Of a stretch of 32,000 bases of DNA, positions 25,554-27,033 are shown in pieces. Source of the DNA: Pseudidiomarina andamanensis (lineage in GTDB: Bacteria; Pseudomonadota; Gammaproteobacteria; Enterobacterales; Alteromonadaceae); assembly GCF_009734345.1 (NCBI RefSeq), contig NZ_CP032551.1:900001-932000 (forward strand), read 5' to 3'. The position numbers and the translations under genes were made by a program. Positions within the stretch are counted from its first letter, which is position 1. Each line of letters starts with the position of its first letter. The notes beneath the pieces were generated by a model that saw only the letters and a program-made list of their open reading frames with translations, was not told the DNA's origin and did no database searches.

Positions 25554-26347
25554 GATAATGCTCCTTTGGTGAGCTGTTTAAGAAGTTGCCGAGGCTTTTT
25601 CATGCTGCTGTCAATAAGGCTAGGAATAAGCCCATTCAGCCGCACAAATAATTTCTCGGGCCAACCAATCGTGGTATTGAGAGTGCCCTTTTCAAGTTGC
25701 TTTATTACCTGTTGCGCAACGAGCTCAGGGCTGTCTTGAGATGTTTTAAGCGCGCGGTTCATCGACGCCATCAAGCCGTCATTTAGTGGCGTTTTAATCG
25801 CGCGAGGTGCGCAGTAAAAGACACGAGCTTGATTACCATCACGTTCACGCTGTAGTCCCTGCGAAAATCCGCGTAACCCGAATTTTGAAGCGTTGTAGAG
25901 AGCCTGCCCGGGAAAGCCAATTGCACCGAACACCGAACCAATGTTCATCACCCAACCATGACTTGGTAGTTGAGGTAACACCAGATGGCATAATTGTATG
26001 GGTCGAATTAAATTGGTTTGAACGACCCGCTCAATATCGCCTCGCGGAGCCATCTCAAATTGCCCAACGTAAGTGACCGCCGCATTGTTTATCAGCGCGG
26101 TGACTGGGTAATCGTTCTGCGCTTTAATATAAACATCAACGCATTCAATAAAGTCATCAGCTAACACATCGGCATGCAAAAAGGGTTGTTGCAACGCACT
26201 CGCAAGTTCTTCTAACCGACCAAGATGACGCCCAATGAGCGTCACCCGAGCGCCTTTGTCAGTCAGTTGTCGGCATAAAGCTTGACCGAGACCACCCGTA
26301 GCGCCCGTCAGTAGAATGTGATGCTGTTGCCAGTTCAGGGTCGTCAT
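25550..26347 (-). CDS. Classical short-chain dehydrogenase/reductase (SDR)
   Basis: 265 aa. Cofactor motif TGATGGLGQAL, NNAAV, and a catalytic Ser...YNASK triad. Confidence 0.85.
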   Translation of the reverse strand: MTTLNWQQHHILLTGATGGLGQALCRQLTDKGARVTLIGRHLGRLEELASALQQPFLHADVLADDFIECVDVYIKAQNDYPVTALINNAAVTYVGQFEMAPRGDIERVVQTNLIRPIQLCHLVLPQLPSHGWVMNIGSVFGAIGFPGQALYNASKFGLRGFSQGLQRERDGNQARVFYCAPRAIKTPLNDGLMASMNRALKTSQDSPELVAQQVIKQLEKGTLNTTIGWPEKLFVRLNGLIPSLIDSSMKKPRQLLKQLTKGALS

Positions 26348-27033
26348 GACGCAAGCTCAACATTCATTGATGGTTGCTCACTCGCTAAGCTTGGTATTGC
26401 ACGAAACATATCGCCATAGAGTCGGTAAACATGTTTCGCCGTGGTGATAATGGCGTCTTGAGCCGCCGCCTCAGTCACTTTGTTCATCAGGGTTTCAAAG
26501 AACGCGACATGCTCTTGATCAAGGTCGCCATGCGACAACAAATAGCTAAATGCGGAATTCGGCAGATTTAACTGCGCTTGGATCTTGCCGGCTGCTTGGG
26601 TAGCCAGTTTGACGCTAGTTCCTTCAAGCACGTGAGCCATACCGAAGAATGACGCCGGGTGAATATCGTCAATGTGGTGATACACCAATGCCACCATCGC
26701 CGCTGTGCTGGTGTGTGGCTCGCTCTGTTCAATTAACTTTGGCGATAATCCAGTTGCTTTTAAATCATTGAGTATCCAGCGCTCATGGCCGTATTCCTCA
26801 TTGATGTACTCAATAATCGCGCGACGCATCCATTCATGCTGATGTGAAATACGGCTACCCGCACGCATCAACAGCGGTGTTGTGTGCTTCACATGGTGAA
26901 ATGCTTGGGTTAGAAAGGCTTGATATTGAGCCAATGTGATACGCCCAGCCAATGCCTCGGCAATAATCGGAGCGCTCAGCAAATACTGTTGCTCAGCCTC
27001 TGTGGATTTACATAATTCATTGAAAAAAGTCAT
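26344..27033 (-). CDS. Heme-oxygenase-like diiron (HDO; TenA/PqqC/CADD-fold iron-containing redox enzyme) family protein
   Basis: 229 aa, all-helical in appearance. Candidate metal ligands are spaced as in the HDO fold: FHHVKH, ExxH in NEEYGHERW, Glu in AHVLEGTS and DxxH in HGDLDQEHV. No signal peptide. Confidence 0.65.
   Translation of the reverse strand: MTFFNELCKSTEAEQQYLLSAPIIAEALAGRITLAQYQAFLTQAFHHVKHTTPLLMRAGSRISHQHEWMRRAIIEYINEEYGHERWILNDLKATGLSPKLIEQSEPHTSTAAMVALVYHHIDDIHPASFFGMAHVLEGTSVKLATQAAGKIQAQLNLPNSAFSYLLSHGDLDQEHVAFFETLMNKVTEAAAQDAIITTAKHVYRLYGDMFRAIPSLASEQPSMNVELAS

Follow-up and report, generated by a model that had tools for sequence, protein, structure and literature searches.

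A conserved seven-gene operon of Pseudidiomarina andamanensis links a heme-oxygenase-like oxidase to an adenylating enzyme, a 'thermostable hemolysin' and a PmrAB-like two-component pair

Within a stretch of 32,000 nucleotides of the Pseudidiomarina andamanensis genome (assembly GCF_009734345.1, contig NZ_CP032551.1, positions 900,001 to 932,000; hereafter the window) one gene encodes a protein of 229 amino acids, P0001, which belongs to the superfamily of heme-oxygenase-like oxidases (HDOs) and which sits in a seven-gene operon of widely conserved order. The operon also carries a T_hemolysin-family protein, a stand-alone adenylating enzyme of the ANL type, a short-chain dehydrogenase/reductase (SDR), a periplasmic tetratricopeptide repeat (TPR) protein and a two-component pair resembling PmrAB. 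The account favoured here, with moderate confidence, is that P0001 is an HDO with a dinuclear Fe or Fe/Mn site, working in a PmrAB-controlled cassette that would make an acylated amphiphile for the cell envelope. The HDO superfamily is known, whereas this clade, its ANL partnership and the PmrAB-linked seven-gene module are not described in the literature searched.

Family membership and candidate metal ligands

That the open reading frame is genuine is borne out by its domain and by its relatives, both well beyond chance: PF14518 (Haem_oxygenas_2) matches with 100.6 bits against a cut-off of 28.9 (E 1.1e-28) across model positions 1-176 of 177, and a word-indexed search returned at least 7874 homologues. 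Public annotations of the homologues read 'TenA family transcriptional regulator', 'PQQ biosynthesis protein C', 'thiaminase' or 'biliverdin-producing heme oxygenase', and relatives in the ESM Atlas carry the same mis-annotations. An AlphaFold (AF2) model of P0001 (predicted local distance difference test, pLDDT, 88.5) has the all-helical heme-oxygenase-like fold, with a Z of 25.3 over 224 residues to PDB 3DDE, of 22.2 to CADD and of 20-22 to heme oxygenases, TenA, UndA and HrmI, and because heme oxygenases and TenA score about equally the fold by itself does not discriminate. Membership is settled instead by profile searches against PDB sequences, in which a profile of the orthologues reaches 3DDE (3e-17) and CADD (7e-4) and a broader family profile reaches 3DDE (7e-37), CADD (2.5e-14), MboA (1e-7), UndA (2e-6) and BesC (5e-3), as well as a second p-aminobenzoate (pABA) synthase. 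The original prediction had set P0001 beside CADD, UndA and BesC, and both the heme-oxygenase-like fold and the profile matches to CADD, MboA, UndA and BesC speak in its favour.

HDO enzymes hold their metals with three histidines and three carboxylates, a Glu and a His from core helix 1, a Glu from helix 2 and a His, an Asp or Glu and a His from helix 3 (PMC7848743, PMC11363339), and the motif E-H-E-H-D-H is present in about 85% of HDO groups (PMC11363339). Residues E80, H83, E137, H168, D172 and H175 of P0001 match this pattern, and the canonical six ligands are proposed to be E80-x2-H83, E137 and H168-x3-D172-x2-H175, which would place E80 and H83 on core helix 1, E137 on core helix 2 and H168, D172 and H175 on core helix 3. 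In the printed profile alignments with CADD four of these agree column for column (E137 with E142, H168 with H174, D172 with D178 and H175 with H181); E79 and E80 align with CADD E81 and E82 in the narrower, orthologue profile, and H83 aligns with CADD H88 in the broader family profile. All four motifs first named in the protein are found there (FHHVKH 45-50, EEYGH 79-83, VLEG 135-138 and DQEH 172-175), and of the ligand set that was built on them the ExxH, the Glu and the DxxH stand, whereas the His of FHHVKH is replaced, by the CADD alignment, with H168 of SHGDLDQEH (HxxxDxxH). Residues H47, K49, H50, E75, E79, E80, H83, E137, H168, D172 and H175 are among those that do not vary in 17 orthologues (53-86% identity), and about 20 of 27 relatives of 26-47% identity retain all six ligands.

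The FHHVKH region seems to have a different part to play. H47-x-K49-H50 sits where, in the model, the helix preceding core helix 1 breaks (residues 49-50), and H47 and H50 are conserved far outside the orthologue set. In SznF the auxiliary helix alpha-2 is interrupted by a turn bearing a seventh ligand, Glu189, which marks the N-oxygenases, and in UndA the hydrophobic Val65 and Phe68 of this helix face the alkyl chain of the substrate (PMC7848743). Going only by its place along the chain, we infer that the broken helix of P0001 is the counterpart of alpha-2 in SznF and UndA, and on this view H47 and H50 may line the substrate pocket, or one of them may be a seventh ligand. To judge by the His-x-Lys-His region and by R61 and R211, both invariant, the substrate would be polar or anionic and not a bare alkyl chain.

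The operon and its enzymes

The placing of the HDO gene between an ANL and an SDR gene in the original prediction was right, the HDO frame overlapping the ANL gene upstream and the SDR gene downstream by 4 nt each, but that three-gene setting was too small and the gene belongs to a seven-gene operon of PmrAB type (Table 1). Related loci were scanned for in one genome per species; at least 596 were found, the best 80 were kept, and the proteins of the window were compared with these by tblastn. Across the loci the order T_hemolysin, ANL, HDO, SDR, TPR, response regulator, histidine kinase is fixed. The HDO is present in all 80, the ANL enzyme and the SDR in 79 each, the TPR protein in 76, T_hemolysin in 71 (some of its apparent gaps being divergent copies) and the response regulator and the kinase in 62 each. 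Two proteins of the module, the HDO and the TPR protein (44-87% identical in the loci that have it), are conserved best. Carriers are mainly beta- and gammaproteobacterial and include Idiomarina, Pseudomonas, Polynucleobacter, Massilia, Methylophaga, Hydrogenophaga, Hahella and Marinomonas, together with a zetaproteobacterial metagenome-assembled genome (MAG). In a sample of 301 genomes drawn evenly from the order to which the window belongs, the HDO (threshold E < 1e-70) is found in 62 and T_hemolysin in 66, every one of the 62 HDO genomes having T_hemolysin, and where both positions are listed the two share contig and strand and are separated by about 2 kb.

Table 1. Features of the window around the HDO operon, with positions counted from the first nucleotide of the window
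Feature	Position	Strand	Evidence or remark
Predicted PmrA-type box, TTTAAG-N5-CTTAAG	29121-29137	minus	about 62-78 nt 5' of the ATG (29059) of the first gene
T_hemolysin-family protein (PF12261)	28460-29065	minus	Pfam E 5e-44
Stand-alone ANL adenylating enzyme/ligase	27030-28466	minus	PF00501 E 4e-46
HDO (PF14518), P0001	26344-27033	minus	229 aa
Classical SDR oxidoreductase (NCBIfam PRK09072 equivalog)	25550-26347	minus	PF00106 E 1e-34; NF006565 284 bits, cut-off 238
Periplasmic TPR protein, predicted Sec signal peptide	24912-25553	minus	TPR Pfam matches; signal read from the N-terminus
OmpR-family response regulator	24246-24911	minus	NF007928 (PmrA) 216 bits
QseC/PmrB-like sensor histidine kinase	22912-24297	minus	HisKA and HATPase_c; QseC 1.6e-60, PmrB 1.8e-42
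Second predicted PmrA-type box, CTTAAG-N5-CTTAAG, palindromic	17807-17823	.	between the divergent dgkA and head-group transferase genes
dgkA	17387-17761	minus	
Membrane sulfatase-family head-group transferase	17870-19837	plus	655 aa

The coupling of the HDO to an ANL enzyme, first put forward as a guess, comes out more strongly than was supposed. An exhaustive representative search yielded many proteins of about 700-750 aa with a C-terminal HDO, and Pfam analysis of the full-length fusions P0122 and P0125 gives AMP-binding, AMP-binding_C and PF14518. A continuous ANL-HDO frame of about 700 aa or more occurs in 12 of the 62 HDO genomes, or about a fifth, and one HDO relative is fused to an enoyl-CoA hydratase. 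Fusions of ANL and HDO are thus common, a Rosetta-stone signal in favour of the two enzymes working on consecutive intermediates.

At the position of the A10 catalytic Lys the ANL enzyme has Arg (residue 453, motif TGTGRLRR), and among its orthologues that position is Arg in 70 of 75 and Lys in the other 5. Its best PDB match is the A-domain of LgrA (6e-28), and despite this match a reading as an amino-acid-activating A-domain was rejected, since the region after A3, read by eye, is PLAVLLEN and lacks an Asp of FDxS type. None of the genes near that of the ANL enzyme encodes a carrier protein.

The T_hemolysin protein most likely starts at the ATG at 29059, which is preferred over the TTG at 29065. 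Its model (pLDDT 90) finds as top Foldseek matches the acyl-homoserine lactone (AHL) synthases LasI, TofI, MesI and BjaI and the N-acyl amino acid synthase FeeM, followed by GNAT proteins in general, and from the modelled fold PF12261 'thermostable hemolysin' is likely an acyltransferase with a LuxI/FeeM-like GNAT fold. No signal peptide was evident on visual inspection of the window protein, and no longer, fused T_hemolysin proteins came up in a search aimed at them, which counts as weak evidence. In Vibrio parahaemolyticus VP1729 encodes delta-VPH, VP1731 encodes an 'iron-containing redox enzyme' and VP1735 belongs to a two-component system, and a STRING-type association ties VP1735 to the other two (PMC10469919). 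Read from the locus numbering and from that association, the region VP1729-VP1735 would be the same module around the archetype delta-VPH. A T_hemolysin that makes a heat-stable hemolytic lipid would also account for the name of the family.

Several features stand at or near the operon in particular genomes. In the window the glutamate racemase gene murI (22166-22915, minus strand) overlaps the kinase stop codon and looks co-transcribed, and it has no match in the other 80 loci, so lies outside the conserved module. On the 5' side, at 29204-31504 of the minus strand, are genes for a secreted beta-lactamase-family protein (463 aa) and for a two-lobed retropepsin-like aspartic protease (297 aa), neither of which is kept beside the module elsewhere. 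In a Porticoccaceae MAG (L036:4220-6022) genes for an S-adenosylmethionine (SAM) methyltransferase and a Kdo/WaaP-family lipopolysaccharide (LPS) kinase stand between those of the ANL enzyme and the HDO. On plasmid unnamed2 of the clinical isolate Citrobacter freundii FDAARGOS_73 (locus L125; NZ_CP026058.1, 210370-214536), which is 326 kb long and mobilizable (MOBH), T_hemolysin, ANL, HDO and SDR are followed by a hypothetical protein at the TPR position and the PmrAB-like pair is absent; this copy indicates that the cassette moves horizontally. As to expression, RNA-library contigs from two studies, on marine sediment and on seawater, contain stretches of the operon, among them the HDO and the SDR-HDO junction, and weakly favour its expression, with DNA carry-over possible and a single transcript not proven by such contigs. 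A scan for consensus promoters and terminators did no better than on shuffled sequence.

PmrA-type control and the competing readings

The sequence at 29121-29137, 5' of the operon, is TTTAAG-AATTC-CTTAAG, which agrees with the PmrA box known from experiment, CTTAAG-N5-xTTAAT (PMC3973317). The direct-repeat pattern YTTAAK-N5-YTTAAK has three matches in the window where 0.12 are expected. When the operon strand was scanned up to 300 nt upstream of T_hemolysin in 71 loci, a predicted PmrA-type box was present in its strict form in 30 (0.5% of background windows) and with at most one mismatch in 55 (1.1% of background windows, an enrichment of about 70-fold), and many other strict matches precede dgkA or copies of T_hemolysin overlooked by tblastn. 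The regulator of the operon is the best PmrA-like regulator of the genome, at 216 bits to NF007928 against 170 for the next. The second box of the window probably belongs to the same regulon as the HDO operon; the head-group transferase gene beside it encodes a protein of weak likeness to phosphoglycerol transferase/LtaS that is not clearly EptA.

Variable neighbours of the module fit an envelope or iron regulon. They include genes for a GT2 protein, DedA and an ArnT-like GT39 protein on an Alteromonas plasmid, the WaaP-like kinase and methyltransferase inserted in one locus, and DgkA upstream in Idiomarina loci. In about 10 loci (for instance L034:10081-11886, and also L126, an Alteromonas macleodii plasmid) a cupredoxin, an FTR1-family iron permease and an unknown protein of 230 aa follow the kinase on the same strand, so that in some lineages the module is connected with the uptake of ferrous iron.

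In the account favoured here the six proposed ligands of P0001 most likely coordinate a pair of metal ions, Fe or Fe/Mn, with which the enzyme would activate O2 and oxidise a carboxylate or acyl intermediate linked to the ANL enzyme, either as its product or as its substrate. The SDR would adjust a hydroxyl or keto group of the intermediate and the LuxI/FeeM-like acyltransferase, T_hemolysin, would form an amide or ester. These enzymes and the TPR protein, five genes in all, would be co-transcribed in an operon with the PmrAB-like pair behind the PmrA-type box, and upon triggering of the sensor the cassette would make an acylated amphiphilic small molecule or lipid for protection or remodelling of the envelope. 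The sequences show the membership of the family, the conservation of the ligands, the linkage and fusion of the genes and the conserved box; metal content, substrate class, type of reaction (C-H/C-C oxidation as opposed to N-oxygenation), product and role are in this scheme what we infer. As the original prediction had supposed, the literature searched held no described reaction for an HDO in a setting of T_hemolysin, ligase and SDR; it held no study of the pathway either, the only link being the association of VP1735 with VP1729 and VP1731.

A number of observations weigh against this account. At the metal site the helix-1 His matches CADD H88 in one profile alignment and fails to do so in the other, a few of the distant relatives of 26-47% identity are without some of the ligands, and among HDOs FlcD can be mononuclear and CADD is Fe/Mn. 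The ANL enzyme lacks the usual A10 lysine, which leaves its chemistry uncertain. The Foldseek matches of T_hemolysin, at a probability of 1.00, have TM-scores of only 0.55-0.60 and identities of 11-14%. The envelope role is drawn from regulation and variable neighbours only. Finally, recombinant delta-VFH of Vibrio fluvialis has been reported as secreted, lipid-binding and cytotoxic (PMC11033176), which fits badly with a cytoplasmic enzyme.

A bolder form of the proposal would join all of its parts, namely a large HDO clade, with P0001 as its founding example, tied or fused to an adenylating enzyme, an activated acyl substrate, a seventh ligand at H47 or H50, a new PmrAB-controlled amphiphile made together with the LuxI/FeeM-like T_hemolysin, and a heat-stable hemolysis, the source of the name delta-VPH, that comes from the product and not from the protein. 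The whole of this combination is tentative and rather less likely than not.

Somewhat unlikely is a locus for synthesis and sensing of a signal in the manner of quorum sensing. A diffusible acylated autoinducer would then be the joint product of the LuxI-like T_hemolysin, the ANL enzyme, the HDO and the SDR, its detection would fall to the TPR protein and the histidine kinase, and the regulator, acting at the box, would bring about autoinduction of the operon. The top fold matches of T_hemolysin are AHL synthases, among them BjaI, MesI and RpaI, which depend on CoA, the genes for the synthase, the periplasmic protein and the cognate two-component system share one operon in 62 of the 80 loci, the predicted box would give positive autoregulation, and the TPR protein is as well conserved as the HDO. 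However, a PmrA-type box and regulator, with the same box before dgkA and the head-group transferase gene, look like an envelope regulon, envelope and iron genes are the variable neighbours, and the likeness of T_hemolysin to LuxI-type enzymes is one of fold, at low TM-scores.

An N-oxygenase role for P0001, like that of SznF, HrmI and FlcE, is unlikely. The HDO would then hydroxylate an amine, which acylation by the ANL enzyme and T_hemolysin would turn into a metal chelator of hydroxamate type, with a PmrB-like kinase that senses iron in control. The break at 49-50 in the helix before core helix 1, with invariant H47 and H50, recalls the turn in alpha-2 of SznF (PMC7848743), in about 10 loci the kinase is followed by the FTR1 and cupredoxin genes, and the Alteromonas plasmid encodes a TonB-dependent siderophore receptor near the module. 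Yet the extra residue in P0001 is a His where the N-oxygenase groups are defined by a Glu, and CADD, which is no N-oxygenase, likewise has a His aligned to H47. Moreover the module has no conserved exporter or receptor gene, and the role of the SDR would not be obvious.

It is very improbable that P0001 is a cofactor-less or otherwise non-HDO member of the fold, be it a TenA thiaminase, a PqqC-like oxidase, a true heme oxygenase or a self-sacrificing pABA synthase of CADD type. Such a reading can draw on a weak PF03070 (TenA) match (E 5.6e-5), which is marginal at 23.4 bits against a cut-off of 22 and covers the model in part, on a weak match to the CADD model TIGR04305, on heme oxygenases reaching a Z of about 22 against the P0001 model and on the TenA, PqqC, thiaminase and heme oxygenase names given to relatives in databases, but the six-residue metal motif is strongly conserved and would be superfluous in a metal-free enzyme. 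The candidates can also be taken singly. The chemistry of TenA (thiaminase II of B. subtilis) requires a catalytic cysteine, and since no Cys is invariant in the 17 orthologues P0001 is not TenA-type, one of the cases that had been named as counting against the original prediction. Canonical heme oxygenases (HO-1, HmuO) ligate heme by a proximal His on the first helix, and P0001 has no His in residues 1-30, where the invariant residues are F3, L7 and T11; nor did the Pfam search give it a match to PF01126. CADD forms pABA from its own Tyr27 (PMC9522330), the counterpart of which in P0001 is an invariant Ile24, and TIGR04305 scores 27 bits where its cut-off is 200.

Equally hard to credit is T_hemolysin as a secreted pore-forming or lipid-binding toxin with the HDO and its neighbours as an unrelated adjacent metabolic operon. 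The secreted, lipid-binding and cytotoxic delta-VFH (PMC11033176) favours it, against which T_hemolysin and the HDO occur together in 62 of 62 genomes in fixed order and with overlapping frames in the window, the module is found also in free-living, non-pathogenic taxa (Polynucleobacter, Methylophaga), the modelled T_hemolysin fold resembles that of acyltransferases and the window protein has by eye no evident signal peptide.

The interest of the system lies in several directions. HDOs have repeatedly given unprecedented O2 chemistry, and the clade of P0001, unstudied as it is, is large, with its thousands of homologues and its presence in about a fifth of the genomes sampled from the order, and the ANL fusion gives a genetic handle on it. 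A virulence-factor name, 'thermostable hemolysin', is re-read as that of a likely acyltransferase always adjoining an HDO, and the HDO and PF12261 are tied to a PmrAB-type circuit of envelope stress from Vibrio parahaemolyticus to freshwater Polynucleobacter. A product that does protect or remodel the envelope would add a new output to PmrAB-type regulation, the circuit with which polymyxin tolerance of enteric bacteria has been linked, and a product that acts as a signal would stand for a new class of autoinducer.

Comparison with known systems

The closest solved relative of P0001 is PDB 3DDE (Sden_3740 of Shewanella denitrificans, a structural-genomics 'DUF with heme oxygenase-like fold'; phmmer 1.7e-11), which shares the EExGHE motif, the helix-2 Glu, HxxxDxxH and a YHxxKH motif, although identity in structural alignments is only about 18-19%; neither a function nor a metal content for 3DDE was found in the literature searched. 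CADD (CT610, the Fe/Mn pABA synthase of Chlamydia trachomatis; 1RCW, 8VA9) shares the fold, the four exact ligands and the Glu/His pair of helix 1, and differs in its sacrificial Tyr27, which is Ile24 in P0001, and in that no folate gene context surrounds P0001.

UndA (the 1-undecene synthase; 4WWJ, 6P5Q; Z about 20 to the P0001 model) and BesC are both HDOs, with a fatty acid or an amino acid as substrate. The ExxH and HxxxDxxH spacing of P0001 resembles that of UndA, and where UndA has the hydrophobic Val65 and Phe68 on alpha-2 the residues taken to be equivalent in P0001 are His-x-Lys-His. Neither UndA nor BesC is known to have an ANL partner. The N-oxygenating HDOs SznF, RohS, HrmI (Z about 20) and BelK have the same six-ligand core as P0001, the extra ligand of the SznF type being a Glu on a beta-turn, for which the candidate in P0001 would be His47 or His50.

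On the side of regulation, PmrAB operons with co-transcribed envelope genes include pmrCAB of Salmonella, the spermidine genes in PA4773-PA4775-pmrAB of P. aeruginosa, and VprAB/CarRS with almEFG in V. cholerae, where VprAB/CarRS might be the orthologous sensor. In the operon of the window, as in these, biosynthetic genes share a predicted YTTAAK-N5-YTTAAK box with a regulator of PmrA type and its kinase, and as in AlmEFG an ANL enzyme is paired with a protein that is, in the window, a likely acyltransferase. Unlike the PmrAB operons it has biosynthetic genes that are unrelated to eptA, arn, speDE or alm, it has no carrier protein, and it includes an HDO and a periplasmic TPR protein.

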